Position numbers and translations under genes: made by a program. A stretch of DNA of 32,000 nucleotides from Candidatus Methanoperedens sp. (GTDB lineage: Archaea > Halobacteriota > Methanosarcinia > Methanosarcinales > Methanoperedenaceae): positions 1-32,000 of the forward strand of contig JAPZAR010000018.1 of the NCBI GenBank assembly GCA_027460535.1, in the 5' to 3' direction. Under the pieces are notes generated by a model. It did not search any database. It had not been told where the DNA came from and was given only the letters and a program-made list of their open reading frames with translations. Every line of letters starts with the position of its first letter. Position 1 is the first letter of the stretch. Below are positions 1,971 to 24,144 of the stretch, one piece after another.

Positions 1971-3015
1971 CTAAGGCATATTTTCAATTTCCCGTATCAT
2001 TGGAAGGCTTTTATATTCAAGCGGATTAAGTACAAACATAAATTCATTCAAAGCAATATCAAAAGCATTATCCTTGAATGTCATGCTCATTTTATCATCT
2101 GTAAAAGTGAAATCAGTGGGTTTTATTCTTAATCCTAAAATCATCTCAATAACCTGTTTATCAATCCATACACGATAAGGCTCTATGAAGTCATAAACCA
2201 GAATATTCCAGTAAGGCTTTTGTGCTTCATTCTGATCCATAAAGCCAATACTTAACTCAAAACCACGTTTTAATAATAGTTCACTCATTCTTTGAGCCAA
2301 CAGAGAATAACCCAAATTCAATATTGCATTTACCGGATCAAGTGCATTTTTATTACCGGATGCTTTTTCTGCCTTTCCAATCCCATTCTTTATTAAACAT
2401 CCATTGTTTAAAGTAGATATTTGATGCACCGGCTTCTACTTGCATAATCTCTTTTATATCCCGTGCCTTGTTAAGTTTAGGGATATAATCTTTCATGTCT
2501 TGGGATTCCAATTTTAATTTTATCAAATATTTGGTTATCTCCAATGCTTTACCGTTAATCCTTGATTCCACTTGTTTTATAATCAATGATGGTCTTTTAA
2601 AATTGAACGGTAAAAAGCTTGCATCAACTTTACCCTTGCTGTCAATCCAGTATATTGCTATCGAATTGGCTTTAGCAAAATCAATAAAAGCAGTTGATAT
2701 ATACCCTTTACCCATTGGAGTTATGATAATTCTTTCAATATTATGAAGGTCTATTGGATAATCCTTCTTAACCTCTATCTTTTTGCTATGTTCTCTCAAG
2801 AATTTTAGATACAATTTACCATGATGTTTAATCTTCTTATCTGGTAATCCAGCTTTGTTATCACGTTCTAATTGCTGGCTTATTAATTCGTCAATTTCAC
2901 TATCGGTATAAGGTCTTTCTGTGTACGAAATGTACGTAAATACAGGTTTTAAATTCTGCTGTCTTAATGCAAATTCAGAGTTTACAATAATCGAATGTGA
3001 GTAAGGTCTTGTAGA
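1971..3015 (-). pseudogene. cas1: Solo cas1, decayed: one frameshift, no canonical start, catalytic His replaced
   Basis: The N-terminal-domain ORF (2353-2814) contains IERIIITPMGKGYISTAFIDFAKANSIAIYWID and EAGASNIYFKQW. The C-terminal ORF (1971-2429), in another frame, contains NALDPVNAILNLGYSLLAQ, SIGFMDQ and LVYDFIEPYRVWIDKQV. The frames switch near the A5/T5 run at 2364-2368. The reading frame is open upstream to 3015 without ATG/GTG/TTG. Confidence 0.8.
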
Positions 3016-4211: not shown

Positions 4212-4252
4212 CTTATCGGCGCCGGGGAATTAATATTTTTGAAGTAATATAT
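4212..4252 (-). repeat. Interspersed repeat family, copy 3 (core only)
   Basis: TATCGGCGCCGGGGAATTAATATTTTTGAAGTAATATAT matches copies 4 and 5 and the reverse complement of copy 1. Confidence 0.7.
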
Positions 4253-4438
4253 GTCTCCAAGTCGACATTTTGAACCTGATATGCTCCTTTCTTATTAAAC
4301 GTCTCAAACTAAGATTGATAGTTAACAGGTGAATAATAATATATTAATAAGATTCTGATACACGCCGACATGTTCATTTACAGGGAAAATAATATGTATA
4401 TTATCAGAAATTAATACCTTTGATCAAGGGAATTATAT

Positions 4439-5193: not shown

Positions 5194-5405
5194 TATTTGG
5201 TCAATCTGGTCTTTTGCCAAAAATTCGCGGCGAACAGGGTCTCCAATCAAAATAAGACCATAGCCCTTCAAATCCAGCAGCCCCATCACCCTCTTTCTCT
5301 CGCCAGCCATCTTGAATCTATAGCAGCGCTGTCGCCCAACTAAGCAGGCCGATTCGGGCCGGGCGGCGGGGGGTTTGAGGTGGGGTGGTTGCCAGGAGGT
5401 ACATT

Positions 5406-5449
5406 GGCGCCGAGGGATTAATATTTTTGAAGTGATAAATGTGTGGCGC
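5406..5449 (-). repeat. Interspersed repeat family, copy 4 (core)
   Basis: GGCGCCGAGGGATTAATATTTTTGAAGTGATAAATGTGTGGCGC. Confidence 0.75.
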
Positions 5450-5577
5450 TTTACACCGCCTTTATCTGCGGCTTCTTTTATTTCCTGAGAAGGTCGCCAT
5501 GCTTCCCTGCTCATCTCCACAGAAAATGCAGGGTATTCAATTTACGCAGGTTGTAGCCTTTCATAGAACGAGAGGTT

Positions 5578-5638
5578 GCTTCGGGAACATATCGGCGCCG
5601 GAGGATTAATATTTAAAGAGTTATAAATTGTGGGCGCC
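5578..5638 (-). repeat. Interspersed repeat family, copy 5
   Basis: GCTTCGGGAACATATCGGCGCCGGAGGATTAATATTTAAAGAGTTATAAATTGTGGGCGCC is a near-exact reverse complement of 175-235. Confidence 0.85.
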
Positions 5639-5810
5639 TTTCTTTTATATCGAAGAGGGACATGACTACATTTTAAAATCCAGCGTTCACTACATCCGCG
5701 AGTGAATATAACCTTTGTGCATAATCATATAAATAAGAATCCACCAATCTGATAAGTGAGTATACCATGCATATCGAATATCCTATATCCCTATTGTCAA
5801 GGAGGCAAGA

Positions 5811-6384: not shown

Positions 6385-9300
6385 TTGTTAAACTCCCTCC
6401 TCTCCTCCCTAAAACCGCGCCAGCTCGAAGCCATCAAACACACCCAGGGTCCCCAACTGATCCTCGCAGGCGCAGGTACAGGCAAGACCACGACCATCAC
6501 AGCCAAGATCGCGAACATGGTCGAAAAGGAAGGCATCGACCCCTCCCAGATACTAGCCCTTACCTTCTCCAAAGAAGCCGCAAGGAACATGCGCGAAAAA
6601 GTCGAGAAACTCCTTCAGGGAAAGGAAGTGATCGTTAAAACTTTCCACTCATTCTGCGCCGAGCTCATCAGGGATAATGCTGACAGATGCAAAGTTCCCG
6701 GCGATTTCAAGATATTCGAGGAAATTGATTCAGCCATTTTCATATTCAGGGAACTCGGGACAGATGCAAGGACCGCCAGCCTGTACGCGAATACGATCGG
6801 AAAATCCAAAGACCTGAATATTTCAATGGACAAATTCAAAGAATTTCTTGAAAAGCTTAAAAAACAAGTTCAGGATATCGAAAAAGATGAGAGCAAGTGG
6901 AAGGAACTATATCGCCAATCCAAATTCAAGCTCAATACCTTCCATCTTCAGGAATACAAAGACAAAGAAGATAAGAAGGCAAAACAGGCAGAGAAAAAAC
7001 GATATTCTGAATTCATAGACCTCTATGAAGAATACCAGAAATATTCAAACTTCATATCAGCATGGGAGAAATATGAAGAAAAGAAATCAGCTATAGGCGC
7101 ACTGGATTACGGCGACCTTAATAAGATTGCACTCTGGTATCTTGATGTGTACGGCACGCAGGAGTTGAACGACACATTCCGCTACATCATCATTGATGAA
7201 TTTCAGGATACCAACTATGTCCAGTTCGAGCTGATCAAGAAGCTCACAGCGGCGGATAATAACATAACAGTGGTGGCAGATCCAAACCAGGCCATCTATG
7301 CATTCCGCGGAGCATATACCAATAATATCGATGAGTTCAAAAAGCAATTCACCCTTTCAGACAAAGACATCGTATCTCTGGATGTCAGCTTCAGGTCGAC
7401 TAATAAGATTCTCAGAGTCGCCCACACTCTGATCGAAAAGAACTATAGAGAGGAAAAAAAGAAAGATTGCCAGCTTCTAAAAAACCACAAAGATATTGAA
7501 GGTGAGAACGTCCGTATCATTGAAACAGAGGACGATAACGAAGAAGCAAGAGCCATAGTGGAGAAGATTGAGTTTTTCCTGGCACAGGGTATTCCTCCAA
7601 AAGAGATCGCCGTATTATATAGGACTCACGCCCAGGGACGAAAGGTGAGGCAGGCTCTTGAAAACAGGGGTTTGCCTTTCCGGGTCAAAGACGATACCGA
7701 TTTCCTGAAGCAGCCTGAGATAAAGACTGCGCTGGCTTATTTGTATGTGATCAACAATATCTCCCATCCCGCAGCCCGCGGGACAGAGGCATGGTGGAGG
7801 ATATTCCATTACAATAATGCATTGAGCCAGGAAGATTCCATCAGGATAGGAGAATACCTCAAGAAAAAATGGGTCTCGTTCCAGGAAGCCATTTATCACC
7901 ATATTGGAGAACTCGGACTTTCAAAGAGCGGTCTTGAGACCATAAGCAACGTTAAAAAGAGGATAGATTCGCTTTGCGGCAAGAAGAACCTTGATGTATC
8001 AGACCTGATCCTTGAGGTCTATGACCTGTCAGGTCTCTCAAGGCAATTCGCCCACACTGACACAAAGCGCAGCAGGGAAGCGCTTTTGAACCTCAGGCAG
8101 CTTCATGAATTGGCCAGTAATTTTGAGGAGTTCCATGGAAAAGACCTGAGCCTGTTCATAGATTATCTTGAGATACTTGATGAGATGGACGGTAACCCGC
8201 CGCCTGCAAGAATAGCGGATGAGGATGCCATAAACCTCATGACCGTACATGCTGCAAAGGGGCTTGAATTCAGCGTGGTATTTCTCACGAACCTTGCAAA
8301 AGATAAATTCCCTCTATACCGGGGGGGCGCAGAGCCGCTGGTTCCTCCTGAACTGATGGATCAGTACAGGGATATCTTTGAGGATAAATCCATCAAAGAT
8401 ATTGAGAAAGCAGTCAGGGAGCGGAAAAGGGAAATAAAAAAGGAAGAGGAGAGGCGGCTTGCATATGTAGCGCTAACAAGAGCAAAAGAACATCTTTTCC
8501 TGACACTGGCGACCAGATACACAGAGGATGAAAGAGAGCCCTCCGAGTTCCTCACGGATATTGGATACAACAACTGGAGAGCCGGGGGGAACATCAAAGT
8601 CGGGGATCTCAATTATTTCAGGGATACCGATACCAAAGTCAGGGAGATGATAAAGGATAGCGCGCTTGAACGGGAAAAGGCAATGCGTAAGAGGCTTCTT
8701 ATAGAGTCGCTTGATTCAGGAGATTTTAATGAAATCATGAAAAATGCGCTGCTGTATCAGGCTCTGAAGGTCGAGGGTACGCCGGATTTTAAGGAGCTTA
8801 TTGATTCCAGCTGGCCAAAAATAGACCCTACCGATGATGCTGACAGGATTTTAGCGAAGATAAAGGAAAAGAAGAACGGATTGAAATTCAATCCCGCAAG
8901 TATGACTTTTAGCTATTCCTCAATAAGTACCTATGAGCGATGCCCGCGCCAGTATGAACTCGCGGAGCTTCTCAGGATGCCTGCACGCGATTCCGAAGAT
9001 TCTACCGGAGCCATGAGAAGGGGGAATTTTGTTCATAAGGTGCTTGAGATAGCAGTGAGTGAAAAGATTGCCACAAAAGAAAGGTTGTATGAGATAAGAG
9101 ATACAGTCGCAAAAGAACCTGATTTCAGGGGCGTTGACATTGAAACTGCAACTGCAGCGCTCGATGTATTCTGGGAGCGGAACAAAAATAGAATGGCAAA
9201 TAACCTGATGGTTGAGCAGAGATTCGCTGTACAGCTTGGAGGTTTTACTTTCAAGGGGTTTATTGACCGGGTGGATCTAATCCCCGGGACAAAGGATGAG

Positions 9301-11052: not shown

Positions 11053-11178
11053 TTATAACTATTTAAATCACGGCGCCGATACGTTCCCGAAGCATCCTCA
11101 TTCCTCAAAACCAAAGCCTGCCAGGTCACACATATAATACAAACCGCAGATGAACGCAGATGAACGCAGATTTGTTAC
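11053..11178 (+). repeat. Interspersed repeat family, copy 6 (long form ending in a 3x GAACGCAGAT-type tandem)
   Basis: TTATAACTATTTAAATCACGGCGCCGATACGTTCCCGAAGCA...AAAGCCTG...AAACCGCAGATGAACGCAGATGAACGCAGATTTGTTACC is collinear with copy 1 (186-297). Confidence 0.8.
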
Positions 11179-11420: not shown

Positions 11421-12950
11421 TTAATTGTTTGAAATAACTTTTATTATATTTGTAGGGCTTTCAGAAATCTTCCAATTGTCACCGTTTGCAAGAATATATG
11501 TATGGTCTGATACTTTTTCTAATCCCCCAGCAGTATTATTACCTATTATTATCGTGAATATTCTCGCATCATTTTCATTCTTTAATTGATTCCACTTTTG
11601 GATAAGCATTTCTTCGCTTATTTGAGAAAGCCCATCTGTAATAAATAATAAGTCAGCACTTTTCCATTTCTTTTCTTCTGTAACGTTGATTCCAGAAGCG
11701 AGTGCTGTGTTGAAGTCTGTTCCACCCCCAAAACTCATACTCATAAAATTGAGGAATTCCGATGCCATTTTTGTCTTGTTTGTTAATTCTATTTCATGGG
11801 TTTGGTTTGTTGATGAGAATAAGATTACCTTTACATCACGATCTTTTTTAAGCATTATTCTCACAATTGAAAGCATAAGAGCTTTCGCTAATATTTCTGG
11901 CTCTCCGTGCATCGAGCCAGAAGTATCCACTAAAGCTACAACAGGTCCACGTTTCCTTTTCTTAGGGGGACCACCAGCCCAGTATTTTCCCCTTAACTGA
12001 TATGTTAAGAGTTTTCCTTCACTATAATTAGCGAAAAATACGTTTTTCAGAATATTATCCTTAAGTTTGACCAACTCTATTGGGAGTATGTGTTGAATGT
12101 CTTTTGATATTCCAACGGAGAATACTTCTGAAGATCCAAAGTTAGTTATTGTAAGCCTCTTTGAACCGTATTCTAGTTCGATTCTGCCCAATAGTTCTAT
12201 CATTTTCTTTATTTCTCTGCTGTGTTCTAATATGCGCGAATATTGTGTAATATGTTCTAAGTATTCTCTATGTAGATCAACTAGCGAATAATCCCAAAGC
12301 CGTCCGGGGAACAGAAGATAAAGTAGTTCTATGGTTTCAAGCTCTTCTCTAATTTTTTCTATTTCCTGTGATATTTGATTAATAAATCCGATTTGAACTA
12401 TCTCGTTTAACATTTCTCCAGATTTTTCTTTTGCATGGAAGTCGTTGAAGTATGAGGATAGGATTTCTCCTTCTGGTGGTATGCCCTCTGTTCTTCTTCC
12501 CCAAAGTTTCAATGTTTCTTCTACAATTTTGCTGAATTCCTCAAGTAGTTTTTTTAAAACATTATCCGTTTTGTCTTCCATTTCCTTTTGATATTTTATG
12601 AAGTTCTCCATAAGGTCGAATATTTGGTTAAGAACTGCTTTTGCTGCCAGAATAGCGGTGATTTTGTTTTGACCAGCCAATTCCTTTATCTCTGTCCACA
12701 GGAGAGAATTTTTTATCGTTGATAGAATTGAATAAAAAGCACCGTATCTCTCAACGAATTTCGGAAGATCTTTAATTTCGATTGGAGCAGCATTTATCAA
12801 TTCTCTGATTACAATTTCAGATATTTCCTCCCTCATTCTCCGTGGGATTTCTCTTGGCGTGGCGATAAATGTGTGCATTTCTTCTTCTGCCAGTAGAGAA
12901 CGAACTGACCATTCGGGTGTATCGATTTCATCCGTGGTTTCTTCAGGCAA
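11421..12950 (-). CDS. viaA: ViaA-like von Willebrand factor A (VWA) protein
   Basis: 509-aa ORF. The TTG start has AGGAGTGG 7 nt upstream, 18 nt after the ravA-like stop. ViaA-like blocks are GRLWDYS, ILPIELVKL and LLTYQLRG. The MIDAS site is intact: VALVDTSGSM, FGGGTDF, LLFITDG. Confidence 0.9.
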   Translation of the reverse strand: MPEETTDEIDTPEWSVRSLLAEEEMHTFIATPREIPRRMREEISEIVIRELINAAPIEIKDLPKFVERYGAFYSILSTIKNSLLWTEIKELAGQNKITAILAAKAVLNQIFDLMENFIKYQKEMEDKTDNVLKKLLEEFSKIVEETLKLWGRRTEGIPPEGEILSSYFNDFHAKEKSGEMLNEIVQIGFINQISQEIEKIREELETIELLYLLFPGRLWDYSLVDLHREYLEHITQYSRILEHSREIKKMIELLGRIELEYGSKRLTITNFGSSEVFSVGISKDIQHILPIELVKLKDNILKNVFFANYSEGKLLTYQLRGKYWAGGPPKKRKRGPVVALVDTSGSMHGEPEILAKALMLSIVRIMLKKDRDVKVILFSSTNQTHEIELTNKTKMASEFLNFMSMSFGGGTDFNTALASGINVTEEKKWKSADLLFITDGLSQISEEMLIQKWNQLKNENDARIFTIIIGNNTAGGLEKVSDHTYILANGDNWKISESPTNIIKVISNN

Positions 12951-19658: not shown

Positions 19659-19794
19659 CTAAACCCAATAAATACACGTGGACTTAATTCCCCACATAAA
19701 ATCCGCAAATCTCTTCTGCCTCACCCCGTCGCTCTCGAACAGCGACCAGTATTTTCACCCACCCACAACCTCACTCCTCCCCAAAAAATCCTTA

Positions 19795-20040
19795 TCAAAG
19801 GTCGCTATCTTCATAATTATATAAAATTTCATCGACCTTTCCACTCAGATTTCGATGCTGGTTACCAAAATGTTCAGGTTTGATTTCTAAAATGCTTCTT
19901 TTCTTTTTTTCTCCAAACCTTTCACTAATTTCATTTGTCACTCTTTCTCCAATGGATGCCCCGCAGCCTTTAATTTCTGCCCGCATTTTTTCTAACGCCC
20001 TTTCACCTTCATCGCAATTCTCTTCCCAAACTCCCTGCAC
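19795..20040 (-). CDS. Small ORF, possibly a PF02697-like orphan antitoxin remnant
   Basis: The 81-aa ORF overlaps the flavodoxin 3' end by 49 nt; an alternative start, MRAEIK, is at 19986. The pattern E..L.K.....GASIGERV...I..R.GEKKKRSILEI...FGN loosely resembles archaeal VapB-like antitoxins. There is no toxin downstream. It may be non-coding. Confidence 0.25.
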   Translation of the reverse strand: MQGVWEENCDEGERALEKMRAEIKGCGASIGERVTNEISERFGEKKKRSILEIKPEHFGNQHRNLSGKVDEILYNYEDSDL

Positions 20041-20423
20041 TTCTCTAACCCTGCCTCATCAGGCTTTTCATGTATCAGAAGCCCTTCTAAAGTCTCCATT
20101 CCATAACCCTTCAACCTGTTCGTGATCAGGTCTACGACTTCGGGGGACCAGCCATAAGAACAGAAGGCTGCTCCAACTTTGCCTTTCAAACCCACATCTT
20201 TTGCCTGATCCAGGAAAACCTCAAGGGCCGGCATTATTTCATGGTGGTAAGTACCAGAACCAAGAACCACACCATCAACGTTTCTAATATCCTCTATCTT
20301 CGCCTCATGGACATGCGATAGATTCACATCCACTTTTTCTGACTTTATTCCTTCTGCTATCGCTTTTGCCATCGCCTCGGTATTATGCGTTGCAGAATCG
20401 TATATTATTGCCACTTTTGCCAT
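19992..20423 (-). CDS. Flavodoxin-like protein
   Basis: 143-aa ORF. MAKVAIIYDSATHNTEAMAKAIAEG is the FMN phosphate-binding loop S-x-T-x-N-T. VVLGSGTYHHE and AAFCSYGW also fit the short-chain flavodoxin fold. Confidence 0.85.
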   Translation of the reverse strand: MAKVAIIYDSATHNTEAMAKAIAEGIKSEKVDVNLSHVHEAKIEDIRNVDGVVLGSGTYHHEIMPALEVFLDQAKDVGLKGKVGAAFCSYGWSPEVVDLITNRLKGYGMETLEGLLIHEKPDEAGLEKCREFGKRIAMKVKGR

Positions 20424-20445
20424 ATTATTTCCCCATTTATCAACA

Positions 20446-20503
20446 CTTTGCGCTCTTTGCGTTCTTTGCTCCGTTCACCGCAGAGGTCGCAAATTTCGCA
20501 AAG
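20446..20503. repeat. Tandem CTTTGCG units plus inverted CGCAAAG copies (hairpin-forming) in the gap between the IscU-fusion gene and the flavodoxin gene
   Basis: CTTTGCGCTCTTTGCGTTCTTTGCT (20446-20470) and CGCAAATTTCGCAAAG (20488-20503). The reverse complement GAACGCAAAG is a variant of the GAACGCAGAT motif. Confidence 0.6.
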
Positions 20504-20528
20504 ATTATTTTTACTGTGATTTCAATCC

Positions 20529-21863
20529 TTAACGCCAATAAGGTTTTCTTAATTCAATGTATGCGTTATGCGCCACCGTGGCACCATGCGCCACCGCGAC
20601 CACTACGAGCTGGAGGTCAGAGGCTATGTCGCCGACTGCGTATACTCCATCGATATTGGTCTTCTGCGTCTTATCGGTCTTCAGGTATCCTTTCACATCC
20701 ATTTCAAGGCCGAGCTTCTTGAATATCTCTGTGTTCGGTGTCATGCCCACGGCCAGAACAACCGCGTCAACTACCTGCTGGATGGTTTCATCTTCCTTCA
20801 GATCCTTCATTATGACTTTTTCGACCTTGTCTGTTCCTGCAATTTCCTGAACCTCAGTATTGTACAAAACCTTGATTTTATCGATAGCTTTCATGCGCTC
20901 GATCTTGTAGGGATCTGCTCTTAACTCATCTTTCCCGTGCGCTATAGTAATGAGGTCGGCAGTATCAGCCAGGCTCAAAGCTGCATCGACGGCCGAGTTG
21001 CCCCCGCCCACGATAAGAACCCTTTTTCCTGTGAATTTCTCGGGATTTGTTACGTAATAATATACTCCGCGCTCGCCCTTGCCGAATTTCTCTTCACCCT
21101 TTATGCCACCTGCTGCCGGAGAGCTGCCTGTGGCCAGAACTATTATCTTTCCCTTGTATTCACCGCTTTCCGCAATGATCTTCCTGTCCTGAGTGATCTC
21201 ATTCACACGTTCTTTTTTTAATTCCACCTTCAATTTCTTGGCTTCATTCACCCACTGGTTGACAAGGTCCTGGCATGTTGATTTCTCACAAAGCCCGGGG
21301 AAGTTCTCGATCATCTTGTTAGGACATAGCCATGAGAGTATCCCGCCCCAGTTGGAGGCTTCGAAGATGGCGGTTTTGAGGCCCCTGTACGCACACAATA
21401 TCCCTGTGGTCAGCCCTCCCGGGCCGCCTCCCACGACTATCACGTCAAAATCATATTTCTCTCCCTCGATCTTGGCACGCTCTTCCTTTTTGTTCATGTA
21501 ATCCTGGATGGCGGCATGAAGGGCATCTGCAGCGAGGTTCGAGCAGTGCATCTTGATCGGGGGAAGACCGTCAAGCTCCGCTGCCACATCACCGCGGGTG
21601 ATCTTGAGCGCCTCTTCAAGCGTTTTTCCGATCGCCATTTCTGTTATCATGCTGCTCGTAGCGATCGCAGAGCCGCAGCCGAACGTCTTGAATTTCACGT
21701 CTTTCAGGATATTATTCTCGACCTTTATCTGGATCTCCATCAGATCCCCGCATACGGGATTCCCGACCCTTCCTACACCGTCCGCATCTTTAATCTCACC
21801 CACATTCCGGGGATTCCTGAAATGATCCATTACCTTTTCTGAATATTCGAATTGTTCTGCCAT
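20529..21863 (-). CDS. IscU/NifU-type Fe-S scaffold fused to a thioredoxin-reductase-like FAD/NAD(P)H flavoprotein that lacks the CxxC
   Basis: The start is taken at ATG 21863, which has GGTGA 5 nt upstream. The longer ORF to 21926 would read through the intergenic repeat. IscU part: GNPVCGDLM, KTFGCGSAIATSS, KMHCSNLAADAL. Flavoprotein part: DVIVVGGGPGGL, GKRVLIVGGGNSAVDAAL, DGVYAVGDIA. The position of the TrxR CATC motif reads GVYYYVTNPEKF. Confidence 0.88.
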   Translation of the reverse strand: MAEQFEYSEKVMDHFRNPRNVGEIKDADGVGRVGNPVCGDLMEIQIKVENNILKDVKFKTFGCGSAIATSSMITEMAIGKTLEEALKITRGDVAAELDGLPPIKMHCSNLAADALHAAIQDYMNKKEERAKIEGEKYDFDVIVVGGGPGGLTTGILCAYRGLKTAIFEASNWGGILSWLCPNKMIENFPGLCEKSTCQDLVNQWVNEAKKLKVELKKERVNEITQDRKIIAESGEYKGKIIVLATGSSPAAGGIKGEEKFGKGERGVYYYVTNPEKFTGKRVLIVGGGNSAVDAALSLADTADLITIAHGKDELRADPYKIERMKAIDKIKVLYNTEVQEIAGTDKVEKVIMKDLKEDETIQQVVDAVVLAVGMTPNTEIFKKLGLEMDVKGYLKTDKTQKTNIDGVYAVGDIASDLQLVVVAVAHGATVAHNAYIELRKPYWR

Positions 21864-21890
21864 TATTTCACCTGGTTTAGTGATTATATC

Positions 21891-21955
21891 GAACGCGGAT
21901 GAACGCCGCAACAAATCTGCGTTCATCTGCGTTTATCTGCGGTTTTTTTATTTTG
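21891..21955 (+). repeat. GAACGCAGAT-family element forming an imperfect 16-bp inverted repeat followed by a T7 run
   Basis: GAACGCGGATGAACGC (21891-21906) pairs with GCGTTCATCTGCGTTT (21919-21934), followed by ATCTGCGGTTTTTTTATTTTG. The element lies in the 102-nt gap between iscS and the IscU-fusion gene. The T-run is on the strand antisense to the operon. Confidence 0.7.
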
Positions 21956-21965
21956 ATTCCCCTAT

Positions 21966-23141
21966 TTATTTTTTATGATAAAGCGGCGATAATGCCCTGA
22001 GTTTAGCAACTATTTTAGGCACTGAGTCAATAACATAATCAACATCTTCTTCCGTATTAGACCTGCCGAGTGTTAGCAGAAGCGAGCCGTGCGCCTCCTC
22101 GTGCCTTAATCCCGTGGCAATAAGCACATGCGACGGCTCAAGCGTTTTCGAGGAACATGCCGAACCTGTGCTTGCTGTTATTCCCAGATCGTTGAGCTGC
22201 AATATGATGCTCTCGCCTTCGATGAAACTGAAGCGAAAACTCGCATTGTTTGGAAGTCTCTTTGTCCTGTGACCTGTGAGATATGTATATTCCATTTTAA
22301 GGATATTATCTATCAACCTGTCACGTAGTTTTATAAGTCGTTCACCTTCCTCTACCATTTCCTTCTGGGCAAGCTCCGAAGCTTTCCCCATCCCAACAAT
22401 TCCGGGGATGTTCTCAGAGCCGCTTCTCATCCCGAATTCCTGCCCACCTCCAAGCATAAAAGGCATGAGCCTTACACCCTGCTTGATATACAGGGCTCCC
22501 GCGCCTTTCGGACCGTGCATATCATTTGATGAAATGGTTAAGAGATCGATATGCTCCTTTTCAGCATCAATAGGGACCTTTCCAACTGCAGCTGTCCCAT
22601 CCACATGGAATAATATTTTCTTATCAGATGCGATCTCACCTATTTCCCTGACCGGCTGCACGGTTCCTATTTCTCCGTTAGCGTACATTACAGAGATGAG
22701 AATGGTTTTGTCTGTTATTGCATTCTTTACTTGTTCAGCGTTCACCAGTCCATCTTTGTCAATGGGGACATAGGTCACCTCAAATCCGCTTCTCTGCAGG
22801 TCTTTCAAGGTATTCATTACAGACATGTGCTCGATAGAGGTGGTAATTATATGATTTCCCTTGTCTTTATACCGCAACGCTGCGCCCCTCAACGCAAGAT
22901 TATTAGATTCCGTGGCGCACGAAGTGAAAACGAGGCTCTTCGGGTTTGGCGCGTTTATCAAATCTGCAACTTTTTGCCTGGCTCCTTCAAGTTCTCGCTT
23001 GGCTTTCCTCCCGGAAGAATGGAGGGAGGAAGGGTTCCCGATATCTTTATCAAAATATGGCAACATGGCTTCAAGCACCCGCGCATCAACGGGTGAAGCT
23101 GAACCGTGATCCATGTAAACCTGTCTCATTTTTTCACTCAA
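21966..23141 (-). CDS. iscS: IscS/NifS-family cysteine-desulfurase homologue lacking the PLP-binding lysine
   Basis: It is collinear with E. coli IscS: VFTSCATESNNLALRGAA, TSIEHMSV, HVDGTAAVG, GMRSGSENIPGIVGMG, STGSACSS. The SGHK motif is replaced by ISSNDMHGPKG. The ORF opens at TTG 23141, but ATG 23129 (MRQVYMDHGS) is the more likely start. Confidence 0.9.
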   Translation of the reverse strand: MSEKMRQVYMDHGSASPVDARVLEAMLPYFDKDIGNPSSLHSSGRKAKRELEGARQKVADLINAPNPKSLVFTSCATESNNLALRGAALRYKDKGNHIITTSIEHMSVMNTLKDLQRSGFEVTYVPIDKDGLVNAEQVKNAITDKTILISVMYANGEIGTVQPVREIGEIASDKKILFHVDGTAAVGKVPIDAEKEHIDLLTISSNDMHGPKGAGALYIKQGVRLMPFMLGGGQEFGMRSGSENIPGIVGMGKASELAQKEMVEEGERLIKLRDRLIDNILKMEYTYLTGHRTKRLPNNASFRFSFIEGESIILQLNDLGITASTGSACSSKTLEPSHVLIATGLRHEEAHGSLLLTLGRSNTEEDVDYVIDSVPKIVAKLRALSPLYHKK

Positions 23142-23150
23142 TTTTCCTTT

Positions 23151-23312
23151 TTATATCCGCCTGTCCCTGCCCTCTGGTCCTTCGCATTCTGGTATATAGC
23201 AGGTCGCATCAATAAAAGCGCACGCCTCATTACAGCTGGGGCACCTCTCGGGAGGTGATGCGCTCCCTTCGAACTGGTAGCCGCACATGGAGCATTTCCA
23301 CTGGATATTCAT
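23151..23312 (-). CDS. Rubredoxin-like zinc-ribbon mini-protein
   Basis: The 53-aa product from ATG 23312 is MNIQWKCSMCGYQFEGSASPPERCPSCNEACAFID... It has CxxC...CxxC, like the C-terminal domain of rubrerythrin, plus 4 further Cys. It lies 10 nt after the dsrE-like stop and 9 nt before iscS. Confidence 0.7.
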   Translation of the reverse strand: MNIQWKCSMCGYQFEGSASPPERCPSCNEACAFIDATCYIPECEGPEGRDRRI

Positions 23313-23322
23313 AAGAATACTC

Positions 23323-23682
23323 TTAAAACCACATCGCTCCGTCAGCTTCCAGCACAAGGTCATTGAGCGTTGCAGCGCCCACGATCTCTGCCGCGGGAAT
23401 AAAATCTCCTCTCCCAAGGTTTATTAACTGCGTGCTTTGCTCGCACACCATGAGCTTTACTCCTGCTTTCACAGTCTGGTCCATTACCTCTTTAAGAGAC
23501 GGAAATTTCCCTATCTTTACCTTTTCTGCATTCCCTTTTTTCACAACAGTGATCCCCATACCCAGGAAATATATGGTGGCATCTATCCCCATTGCTTTCG
23601 CGGTCTGTGCCAGGATAAAAGGGGAATAAAGGCGTTCAGGTGTATCGACACCACTTGTCTGGACATATAGAATGTTAGTCAT
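23323..23682 (-). CDS. DsrE/DsrF-like (COG2044-type) sulfur-relay family protein
   Basis: 119-aa ORF. ILYVQTSGVDTPERLYSPFILAQTAKAMGIDATIYFLGMG...VKLMVCEQS...AATLNDLVLEADGAMWF fits the DsrE-fold pattern with a conserved Cys. Confidence 0.8.
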   Translation of the reverse strand: MTNILYVQTSGVDTPERLYSPFILAQTAKAMGIDATIYFLGMGITVVKKGNAEKVKIGKFPSLKEVMDQTVKAGVKLMVCEQSTQLINLGRGDFIPAAEIVGAATLNDLVLEADGAMWF

Positions 23683-23733: not shown

Positions 23734-24144
23734 ATGAATTCGAAGGTGTGGTATTTATTTCAGAAAAACTTAAGTCAAGTAAATATATTTATATTATTTG
23801 TGATTGAAATCTATTTTATATTTTTTTCCTTGACAATTGCAGCCATAGCGATCTATCTCTCATTGAGAAATTTGGCATGCTGGAAAAAGTTAGATCTGAG
23901 CACACTTAAGGCGAAGGTATTCCTGGACAGCTCTTTCTTGAAATACGATTTCAAACTTACAATAATAATGGTGGCGCTGTTAAGCTTTCATTTTATAACG
24001 GAGTATATGGAACTTGAGGGAGTCCTGCCTCAGTATATGGATATTGCTTGCCAATATTCGCTCCCGTTAGTTCTTCTGATCCTTGTGTTGATTCAGTACA
24101 AATGGTACACGCTTCTCCACAAGAAAATGCCTTTAAAAAACTAA
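23734..24144 (+). CDS. Hypothetical small membrane protein
   Basis: 136-aa AT-rich ORF with 3-4 hydrophobic segments (IFILFVIEIYFIFFSLTIAAIAIYL, LTIIMVALLSFHFI, YSLPLVLLILVLI). I recognise no family. Confidence 0.5.
   Translation: MNSKVWYLFQKNLSQVNIFILFVIEIYFIFFSLTIAAIAIYLSLRNLACWKKLDLSTLKAKVFLDSSFLKYDFKLTIIMVALLSFHFITEYMELEGVLPQYMDIACQYSLPLVLLILVLIQYKWYTLLHKKMPLKN

Follow-up and report, generated by a model that had tools for sequence, protein, structure and literature searches.

The contig JAPZAR010000018.1 of Candidatus Methanoperedens sp. carries, within the 32,000-nt stretch analysed here (hereafter the window), five head-to-tail genes on the minus strand at 19992-23682, which encode a DsrE-like protein, a Cys-rich mini-protein, an IscS, an IscU scaffold fused to a reductase-type flavoprotein domain, and a flavodoxin (Table 1). 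The initial annotation of this DNA had placed the five genes there, with spacers of 10, 9, 102 and 105 nt, and had proposed that they form a self-sufficient pathway assembling iron-sulfur (Fe-S) clusters. The open reading frames (ORFs) were confirmed at these positions, and profile searches confirmed each of its domain calls. The starts of the mini-protein and of the IscU fusion, and the spacers given above, follow the starts of homologues, as the mechanical ORFs run longer: that of the mini-protein reaches back to a TTG at 23417 while all its homologues begin with MNIQW or MKIQW, and that of the fusion begins at 21926 while its homologues begin with MAEQFEY. Here we show that sulfur carriers of the TusA/DsrE type are tied almost exclusively to an IscS devoid of its active-site lysine, and that in a few lineages, including the one represented in the window, the scaffold partner of this IscS is fused to a flavoprotein. 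Gene content, motifs and co-occurrence statistics are given below as observed; L-numbers denote other loci fetched for comparison.

Table 1. Positions of the genes, domains and non-coding features of the five-gene block in the window
Feature	Coordinates	Strand	Description
DsrE-like	23323..23682	-	119 aa; DsrE3-like sulfur-carrier family, candidate active-site Cys80
Rubredoxin-like Cys-rich mini-protein	23151..23312	-	53 aa; two CxxC knuckles and three further Cys
Lysine-less IscS (A. fulgidus IscS2 / MisS type)	21966..23141	-	391 aa
IscS-to-fusion spacer	21864..21965	-	dispersed repeat CCGCAGATAAACGCAGATGAACGCAGATTTGTTGC and TATA-like GATATAAT
IscU-reductase fusion, whole gene	20529..21863	-	444 aa
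IscU (NifU_N) scaffold domain	21474..21863	-	fusion residues 1-130
Thioredoxin-reductase-like FAD/NAD(P)-binding domain	20529..21449	-	fusion residues 139-444
Short-chain flavodoxin	19992..20423	-	143 aa
Conserved stretch with T6 run (GCGACCTTTGATAAGGATTTTTTGGGGAGGA...)	19755..19805	-	likely transcription-unit end

The IscS of the window has the class V aminotransferase fold (PF00266, 246 bits) with an IscS/NifS-type sequence, and scored below the equivalog cut-offs of both NifS (505 versus 531 bits) and IscS (447 versus 643 bits). The best matches among solved structures were those of Archaeoglobus fulgidus IscS2 (4eb5, 4eb7 and 4hvk; E 2e-144), to which it is 62% identical. Its motif at the pyridoxal phosphate site reads SSNDMHGPKG against the canonical S[AGS]HK..GPKG, and aligns residue by residue with SSNDIYGPKG of A. 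fulgidus, where the Asp is Asp199. The His-Lys pair of canonical cysteine desulfurases (SxHK) is thus absent from this protein and is replaced by N206-D207, the neighbouring His having changed to Asn along with the Lys. An engineered A. fulgidus protein, D199K (4r5f), reads SSNK and differs at exactly that position. The loop cysteine, Cys329 (STGSACSS), is retained, as it is in nearly all lysine-less homologues, and the N-D pair is invariant in the IscS partners of all the fusions examined. The Lys-to-Asp change read in the initial annotation thus held, and identifies the protein as a lysine-less paralogue of the A. fulgidus type; such an IscS was already known. The A. fulgidus IscS with Asp199 shows no desulfurase activity, and in the (IscS-IscU)2 crystal its loop Cys is a ligand of the [2Fe-2S] cluster (PMC8918507). 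The route by which sulfur reaches the A. fulgidus IscS-IscU complex has been stated as open, with free sulfide as the working guess (PMC8918507; PMC7585200).

Conservation of the gene order was examined in two surveys. The forward survey covered 86 loci, each fetched around a relative either of the fusion or of its IscU domain, and homologues of the window proteins were located in them by tblastn; the loci in both surveys are phylogenetically related and were sampled through similarity searches, and the p-values given here carry no phylogenetic correction. The IscS encoded ahead of IscU was either canonical, with S[AGS]HK (18 loci), or lysine-less (42 loci), the latter mostly with SSND and otherwise with NE, WD, GD or NS. 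TusA and/or DsrE lay directly upstream of 38 of the 42 lysine-less IscS-IscU pairs as compared to none of the 18 canonical ones (Fisher p = 8e-12), typically in the order TusA-DsrE-IscS-IscU. Lysine-less pairs were found in Hadarchaeota, Bathyarchaeia, Methanomassiliicoccales, Methanomicrobiales (Methanomicrobiaceae, Methanofollis), Methanocellales, Methanomethylicia, Thermoplasmata, Asgard archaea (Odin- and Promethearchaeota), Nitrososphaerota and Aminicenantes. In the reverse survey an alignment of DsrE homologues was searched against metagenome contigs, and 24 loci had enough sequence on both sides to be informative. A lysine-less IscS-IscU pair adjoined DsrE in 22 of these, nine having the archaeal order TusA-DsrE-IscS(ND)-IscU and thirteen the permuted order IscS-IscU-TusA-DsrE, with Lys replaced by Gln (GNQ) in all 12 that were readable. 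The thirteen permuted-order contigs encode a sigma-70 factor and are therefore bacterial. Their NQ-type IscS is 49% identical to the ND type and 51% to the HK type, and is thus no closer to ND. A scan of downstream genes only had seemed to show 46 of 70 DsrE loci without IscS; this was overturned by the order IscS(NQ)-IscU-TusA-DsrE (L118). Conservation across Methanosarcinales and related genomes had been suggested as a check on the proposed pathway. The link between DsrE and lysine-less IscS/IscU passes this check far beyond Methanosarcinales, the carrier link recurring in about 100 loci of diverse anaerobes, archaeal and bacterial. The five-gene order is not kept, and a self-sufficient five-gene pathway is not established. 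The near-exclusive linkage of TusA/DsrE to lysine-less IscS appears undescribed in the literature that we reached: the open-access papers yielded none joining DsrE with IscS/IscU in this way, though the primary A. fulgidus papers and Garcia et al. 2022 may mention it.

Neighbouring ORFs were clustered from 98 lysine-less modules, and each class of neighbour was recounted by tblastn over 86 lysine-less and 21 canonical pairs. The recount placed ferredoxins beside lysine-less modules in 20 loci and rubredoxin in 4 (5 by clustering), and clustering added the flavodiiron protein FprA in 8 loci and rhodanese in 4. Ferredoxin, rubredoxin or flavodoxin flanked 38 of 86 lysine-less modules versus 4 of 21 canonical ones, a difference (p = 0.046) that is suggestive only. 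A 54-aa Cys protein resembling TRASH/YHS domains followed IscU in 20 lysine-less loci as against 0 of 21 canonical ones. This small protein, present in about a fifth of the lysine-less modules (18-20 loci; e.g. L025, 1096-1260), gave sub-threshold Pfam hits, and might serve these modules as a metal (iron?) chaperone. The bacterial permuted module (L103-L150; e.g. L118, 1918-5847) often has a single-cluster ferredoxin or a rhodanese ahead of it, and a hemerythrin-domain protein and a Crp/Fnr regulator after it; in L124 a canonical HK-type IscS-IscU pair stands in tandem directly upstream. Genes for defence against oxygen and reactive oxygen species recur beside TusA/DsrE and lysine-less IscS-IscU in unrelated lineages (L082, L006, L040, L059, L063 and L069). 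Elsewhere in Methanoperedens genomes there is, in addition, a canonical IscS-IscU pair (L020, L022, L026, L029 and L030).

The DsrE-like protein has the DsrE fold (PF02635, 63.9 bits against a cut-off of 22.7; DrsE_2, 60.7 bits). Its best solved structure was 3mc3 (SSO1125; E 2e-12), whose Cys aligns with Cys80, a residue invariant in 31 of 31 homologues. It is 65% identical to the gene product encoded beside A. fulgidus IscS2 and 60-81% identical to homologues across archaeal phyla, an identity which exceeds that of IscS over the same range (55-63%). The DsrE2 subgroup equivalog NF047629 gave 47 bits against a cut-off of 210, and the nearest structure, SSO1125, is of the DsrE3A type; from these matches we would assign the protein no further than DsrE3-like, unclassified. 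In other lineages TusA is encoded upstream of DsrE, and the Cys of its CPxP motif is conserved in at least 90% of 36 TusA homologues. The Methanoperedens loci are without a TusA gene, and most of them (11 of 14 Methanoperedens-type loci) have the mini-protein between DsrE and IscS. The mini-protein matched the rubrerythrin-type rubredoxin-like domain PF21349 (33.6 bits, cut-off 26.5) but not the canonical rubredoxin family PF00301, with which a true rubredoxin from another locus scored 89 bits. It has seven Cys, including the knuckles C7xxC10 and C24xxC27 of a predicted Cys4 metal site, which all homologues keep, and all seven together with the C-terminal CYIPECEGPEGRDRRI are identical in six other Methanoperedens loci. 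The family comprises six protein clusters, all from Methanoperedens. This protein had been taken for a Zn-ribbon that could deliver sulfide or persulfide; its restriction to one genus, and the fact that its family matches solely rubredoxin-like domains, do not bear out such a role. Since its best matches are rubredoxin-like domains, electron transfer or metal binding would be at least as likely a function as sulfide delivery.

Proteins annotated from Methanoperedens share 75-92% identity with the fusion protein. In the latter, residues 6-127 form a complete U-type scaffold (NifU_N, 168.9 bits; TIGR03419, 209.4 bits against a cut-off of 187.9) in which the IscU residues C38, D40, C63, H106 and C107 are invariant across 48 fusions and an LPPVK-like motif, LPPIK, is present. 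A single-domain IscU has about 130-150 aa; here a linker of about 10 residues joins the scaffold to a C-terminal flavoprotein domain of 306 aa. This domain matched Pyr_redox_2 over residues 139-427 (145 bits), and the thioredoxin reductase (TrxR) model TIGR01292 with 229 bits, below its cut-off of 343. The FAD motif GGGPGG (145-150) and the NAD(P) motif GGGNSA (286-291) are present, their glycines and alanine being invariant in the 48 fusions. Its best solved structures were TrxRs (7jyp, 4zn0 and 2q7v; E ~1e-42), and the redox-active CxxC of these (CAAC, CAIC and CATC) aligns with YYVT; no member of the fusion family has a CxxC. A true thioredoxin reductase was considered and was ruled out by the missing CxxC. 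TrxR-like ferredoxin/flavodoxin-NADP+ reductases (FNRs) matched the domain at E ~1e-33 to 1e-24 (6gas, 3lzw and 2zbw). Enzymes of this group (YumC, 3lzw; Bacillus cereus FNR1/2, 6gar/6gas; the Thermus thermophilus enzyme, 2zbw) reduce flavodoxins and ferredoxins, and share with the window domain a TrxR fold without CxxC; they differ in that genuine TrxRs match the window domain slightly better, and in that the latter is fused to IscU. From its motifs and matches, we would call the domain a CxxC-less TrxR-like flavoprotein with the TrxR-like FNRs as its nearest characterised functional analogues.

The nearest free-standing relatives of the flavin domain (39-51% identity) likewise have no CxxC but keep HRRDxFRA (HRRDKFRA) and a C-terminal RPYW. 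TrxR-like FNRs are marked by a C-terminal extension that stacks an aromatic or His residue on the flavin; at the C-terminus here, KPYW(R) is kept in Methanoperedens fusions and in the free-standing relatives and is absent from the fusions of ANME-2a and Asgard archaea. The invariant GxGxxA makes use of NAD(P)H plausible and binding of a pyridine nucleotide likely, while the HRRxxxR motif is degenerate. The idea of a scaffold with a fused reductase holds up, but the original wording of an NAD(P)H-flavin reductase has to be qualified, since the domain is of the TrxR family without CxxC and its phosphate motif has degenerated. AlphaFold modelled both domains confidently (pLDDT 87.5). Foldseek searches with the model returned only TrxR and FNR folds and no IscU-reductase fusion among solved structures. 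The full-length fusion forms a single cluster in a library clustered at 50% identity, with members from Methanoperedens (ANME-2d), ANME-2a (Methanocomedens), other Methanosarcinales and Asgard archaea (Jord- and Freyarchaeia), and it appears undescribed in the literature reached. Aminicenantes, a Promethearchaeote and a deltaproteobacterial metagenome-assembled genome (MAG) have an IscU of 269 aa that bears a degenerate relic of the NAD(P)-binding subdomain without GxGxxG (L057, L066, L078 and L079; P0129 and P0130) and may be a decayed fusion. The context of the nearest free-standing CxxC-less TrxR-like protein (P0121), beside MCM and HdrABC, was uninformative.

The flavodoxin (PF00258, 66.6 bits) has the flavin mononucleotide phosphate loop SATHNT, of the form S/T-x-T-x-x-T, and hit PRK05568 and TIGR01753 under their cut-offs, the equivalog scores being 108 versus 206 and 103 versus 123. 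It is 87% identical to the gene product in the same position in L007, the closest relative of the window locus, where the flavodoxin is followed by a gene (7788-8063) resembling the beta subunit of ferredoxin:thioredoxin reductase (FTR-beta-like), which the window lacks. Searches of the window for TusA and for the FTR-beta-like gene found neither, and the 63-aa ORF lying in the FTR-beta position (19795-19986, minus strand) is unrelated, matching no Pfam family and having no homologue among the fetched loci. An FTR-beta-like gene also follows the fusion in L005 (7348-7614); the products in these relatives have 88-91 aa and CPC/CHC-type cysteines. A Methanocellales MAG (L034) has the order DsrE-IscS(ND)-IscU-ferredoxin-ferredoxin-flavodoxin, the closing flavodoxin being of the same length as that of the window and 42% identical to it. 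Hits for flavodoxin and Zn-ribbon beside TusA-IscS-IscU in L040, L059, L063, L069 and L082 were considered as independent five-gene copies and were not counted; those in L082 come from a flavodiiron protein, through its flavodoxin domain, and from a rubrerythrin, through its rubredoxin domain, and are not module members.

The module shares parts with several known systems. In the 2-thiouridine relay of Escherichia coli (IscS-TusA-TusBCD), sulfur flows outward from an active IscS to tRNA. The same three families, IscS, TusA and DsrE/TusD, each with a conserved, putatively persulfide-carrying Cys, occur here, but E. coli has an active IscS as the source and a TusBCD heterohexamer, whereas the present module has an IscS presumably incapable of desulfuration, so that the flow would have to begin elsewhere, and a single DsrE3-like protein. 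In the ISC system electrons pass from ferredoxin reductase through Fdx to IscU, and NifU has a redox-active central domain. A dedicated path of reductant to a U-type scaffold, serving cluster coupling or the conversion of persulfide to sulfide, would be common to ISC, NIF and the fusion, and NifU is a precedent for a redox module fused to NifU_N; that module is [2Fe-2S] ferredoxin-like, while ours is of the FAD/NAD(P) type with a TrxR fold. The MIS system (MisS/MisU), reportedly defined by Garcia et al. in 2022, likewise rests on an IscS/IscU-like pair of an anaerobic archaeon and has neither chaperones nor A-type carriers; MIS is defined as two genes without accessories, and here DsrE, with or without TusA, accompanies most lysine-less pairs and the scaffold carries a reductase. 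A 2026 review gives MIS no additional components and its electron donors as unknown (PMC13066941).

The closest experimental counterpart, A. fulgidus IscS2-IscU (AF0564/AF0565), has the same SSND, loop Cys and IscU ligands and also a DsrE gene directly upstream, but its IscU is a free protein of 153 aa without a reductase domain, and neither a rubredoxin-like gene nor a flavodoxin is found there. The A. fulgidus locus (L087; AE000782, 507338-518486) has FeoB fragments and a DtxR-type repressor ahead of the module and a 112-aa ArsR-like helix-turn-helix protein after it, a context that hints at iron-responsive control. Ferroglobus placidus has TusA-IscS-IscU. The isc1 cluster of Methanosarcina acetivorans comprises MA0810 (SirA-like), MA0809 (DsrE), MA0808 (IscS1, without Lys) and MA0807 (IscU1) (PMC7585200, Fig. 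S1 legend); Deere et al. 2020 described its extra genes as "of unknown function", drew no inference from them, reported no broader linkage and studied only isc2 experimentally (PMC7585200). This cluster (MA0806-MA0811) shares with our module the order SirA-like(TusA)-DsrE-IscS1-IscU1, and differs from it in that IscU1 is a 24 kDa protein with a different, shorter extension and TusA is present, unlike in Methanoperedens.

Proteins of the DsrE/TusA families carry sulfane sulfur, as persulfide or thiosulfonate, on a Cys and do not carry sulfide. Because the lysine-less IscS would form no persulfide from cysteine, and because sulfane carriers are tied almost exclusively to it, the simplest reading is that DsrE brings the sulfur. 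We therefore consider the module, with slightly better than even confidence, to be a variant of the archaeal MIS system in which a protein persulfide relay supplies the sulfur and the scaffold has its electron supply fused to it. Homology to the A. fulgidus complex makes the IscS-IscU pair the most likely site of assembly. The DsrE3-like protein, together with TusA in most other lineages, would carry sulfane sulfur on Cys80, having been loaded from polysulfide, thiosulfate or rhodanese, or by the canonical IscS encoded elsewhere in Methanoperedens, and would pass it to the loop Cys329 of IscS or directly to IscU. The lysine-less IscS would otherwise act as structural partner of IscU and provide the fourth cluster ligand, as in the A. 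fulgidus complex. Sulfane sulfur needs two electrons to become cluster sulfide, and in ISC ferredoxin provides these on IscU; this requirement would explain both the electron carriers beside the modules and the reductase fused to the scaffold in a few lineages. The fused FAD domain may take reducing equivalents from a pyridine nucleotide and deliver them, either directly or via small carriers such as the rubredoxin-like mini-protein and, in some strains, flavodoxin, so that S(0) becomes S(2-) and/or [2Fe-2S] units are coupled reductively. The suggestion that DsrE is the missing delivery step thus stood in so far as the carrier link held up and generalises, but since DsrE and TusA carry sulfane sulfur, a persulfide relay needing a reductase fits better than delivery of sulfide. 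Functional coupling of DsrE with the lysine-less IscS-IscU pair is the part of this scheme in which we have higher confidence than in the whole; the direction of sulfur flow, the reductase as electron donor and its own donor, and the roles of mini-protein and flavodoxin are parts that we infer with lower confidence.

Several observations weigh against this scheme. The flow of sulfur and of electrons is proposed from gene context, and in E. coli sulfur moves in the opposite direction, from IscS to TusA. Four lysine-less loci (L002, L008, L040 and L063) have neither TusA nor DsrE nearby, and two DsrE loci (L120 and L159) have no IscS. Shared ancestry and similarity-based sampling mean that the p-values overstate the independence of the loci. 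On the electron side, the 2'-phosphate motif HRRxxxR reads AHGKDELRA in the window and AYKEKN or VTTEES in other fusions, and in the AlphaFold model the linker (131-135) scored below 50 with a pTM of 0.60, leaving the placement of the flavin domain against the IscU site unfixed. Of 12 Methanoperedens-type loci only 2, the window and L007, have flavodoxin after the fusion, and membership of flavodoxin in the module, as originally proposed, is not established; the commonest downstream neighbour, directly after the fusion in 5 of the 12 (L003, L004, L005, L008 and L013), is a ribonucleotide reductase with ATP-cone and large-subunit domains. Genes for oxygen stress are frequent neighbours of the module, a pattern as compatible with a specialised role in stress as with a housekeeping one. 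The A. fulgidus work, finally, favours free sulfide, for which neither a relay nor a reductase is needed (PMC8918507).

The best surviving alternative, which we nevertheless hold to be unlikely, starts from this last point. The lysine-less IscS and IscU would by themselves be an Fe-S machine using free sulfide, DsrE and TusA would buffer or detoxify reactive sulfur or supply sulfur to thio-cofactors, and the fused reductase would merely keep the scaffold thiols reduced or carry out reductive [2Fe-2S] coupling. Use of sulfide is the published hypothesis for A. fulgidus (PMC8918507), reviews describe MIS and SMS as able to use sulfide (PMC13066941), and a role in detoxifying reactive sulfur has been suggested for DsrE4-group members (PMC11094781); the six loci in which one partner lacks the other also agree with it. 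What it leaves unexplained is the linkage of TusA/DsrE to lysine-less IscS with none at the 18 canonical pairs, and the persistence of the four genes together, in two orders, in archaea and bacteria. The stronger conservation of DsrE than of IscS itself across phyla also speaks against it.

We regard it as improbable that the module is instead a thiolation relay (for tRNA s2U/s4U, molybdopterin or thiamine) in which the IscS-IscU cluster is an intermediate and TusA/DsrE the exit. TusA and the DsrE homologue TusD do belong to the E. coli 2-thiouridine relay that starts at IscS, and in A. fulgidus (L087) genes for a QueC/NAD-synthase-type ATP pyrophosphatase and for FdhD are found within a few kb of the module. 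A lysine-less IscS, however, would be unable to mobilise the sulfur of cysteine and so could not be the source of such a relay; the ORFs flanking 98 loci include no recurrent TusE/DsrC, MnmA/NcsA, ThiI or MoaD/MoeB, and the recurrent neighbours are electron carriers and metal-binding mini-proteins.

Similarly low is the probability that we give to a stress-specialised, SUF-like assembly or repair system against damage by O2, NO or nitrite, in which the scaffold would be repaired or protected from redox damage by reductase, flavodoxin and rubredoxin-like protein; its sulfur input would be compatible with the proposed relay, from which this reading differs as to the occasion and purpose of the system's use. 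Methanoperedens reduces nitrate and has, besides, its canonical IscS-IscU pair elsewhere. The stress genes in question include a flavodiiron protein, a rubrerythrin and a PerR/Fur-like regulator beside TusA-IscS-IscU in L082 (2390-4561), a superoxide reductase and an AhpD-like protein upstream in L006 (1814-2741), FprA in its eight loci, and the hemerythrin and Crp/Fnr genes after the bacterial form. The window itself, however, has no such stress genes beside the module, and the association is anecdotal.

It is very doubtful that the flavodoxin, and possibly the reductase domain, belong to a separate redox unit (flavodoxin, FTR-beta-like protein, ribonucleotide reductase) adjacent by synteny only: the ribonucleotide reductase genes after the fusion, and 1.9 kb downstream of it in the unrelated fusion locus L002, the FTR-beta-like genes after the fusion (L005) or the flavodoxin (L007), and the absence of flavodoxin from most loci are in its favour, but the reductase domain lacks the CxxC needed for thioredoxin and is fused to IscU in every member, and the 42%-identical flavodoxin closes the Methanocellales cluster with no ribonucleotide reductase visible, the contig ending shortly after. 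Chance adjacency of the module genes is ruled out by the conservation data.

The genes on both sides of the module are unrelated to the Fe-S block. Upstream lie genes for a TRAM protein, an amidohydrolase, a P-type ATPase and carbamoyl-phosphate synthase, and downstream a defence island with type I restriction-modification, MoxR/VWA, a nucleotidyltransferase/PIN pair, a UvrD-PD(D/E)XK helicase-nuclease and a split Cas1. No promoter would fit into the gaps of 10 and 9 nt. The spacer of 102 nt between IscS and the fusion consists mostly of an inserted dispersed repeat, CCGCAGATAAACGCAGATGAACGCAGATTTGTTGC, at a place where relatives have 4-63 nt; the repeat contains a 9-bp inverted repeat (GATGAACGC/GCGTTCATC), has further copies in the window at 11141-11176, 121-141, 274-287 and 419-433, and occurs between genes in other Methanoperedens contigs (L007, 12002-12034; L013, 6959-6983). 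It may be a REP/MITE-like element or a regulator site. As read from the sequence, the TATA-like GATATAAT lies about 20 nt ahead of the start codon of the fusion, and the spacer between fusion and flavodoxin has its own triple repeat of GCAAAG(A). Within the conserved T6 stretch, 38 nt are 95% identical to L007 8104-8141, which there lies 3' of the FTR-beta-like gene. A minus-strand scan of the intergenic spacers of the block found no terminator-like site, by bacterial rules applied to an archaeal host. This arrangement is consistent, if weakly, with a single transcription unit from dsrE to flavodoxin.

Other features of the window lie outside the module. No tRNA or Rfam element was found in it. 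The Cas1 gene is split into overlapping ORFs (1971-2814, minus strand; N-terminal part 2353-2814, C-terminal part 1971-2429), and is probably a frameshifted pseudogene or a sequencing error. A repeat of 36-50 nt (ATCGGCGCCGGGGAATTAATATTTTTGAAG...) occurs in three or four copies, at 4215-4264, 5403-5452 and 5591-5640 (and 12840-12875), around short ORFs without annotation where the GC content of the defence island is low. Divergent from dsrE, in an AT-rich stretch, lies an ORF for a hydrophobic 136-aa protein (23734-24144, plus strand). It matched nothing in Pfam, gave no convincing homologue among the fetched loci, and may be spurious.

Methanogens, ANME archaea and related anaerobes rely on very many Fe-S proteins. 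We know of no sulfur donor for the crystallised A. fulgidus lysine-less IscS, and both the sulfur and the electron sources of the minimal IscS/IscU pair have been stated as open (PMC8918507, 2022; PMC13066941, 2026). DsrE/TusA is a concrete candidate for the sulfur donor, present in A. fulgidus and M. acetivorans, both of which are laboratory systems. The IscU-reductase fusion, in turn, offers a natural model of electron delivery in one polypeptide, where mitochondria and bacteria need ferredoxin and ferredoxin reductase. It is possible, though we would put it a little short of even, that an unrecognised, cysteine-independent route of Fe-S assembly is widespread among anaerobic archaea and present in some bacteria, in which TusA/DsrE replace the lost desulfurase chemistry and bring sulfane sulfur to IscU, and the electrons are given by dedicated carriers (ferredoxin, rubredoxin or flavodoxin) from neighbouring genes or, in ANME-2d, ANME-2a and some Asgard lineages, by the fused reductase; if true, this would answer how A. 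fulgidus-type IscS-IscU is supplied with sulfur and how reduction is achieved in MIS-type systems. If the proposed relay operates in Methanoperedens, sulfane sulfur would be the source instead of, or besides, free sulfide, which would bear on the physiology of ANME archaea and on models of early Fe-S biogenesis.

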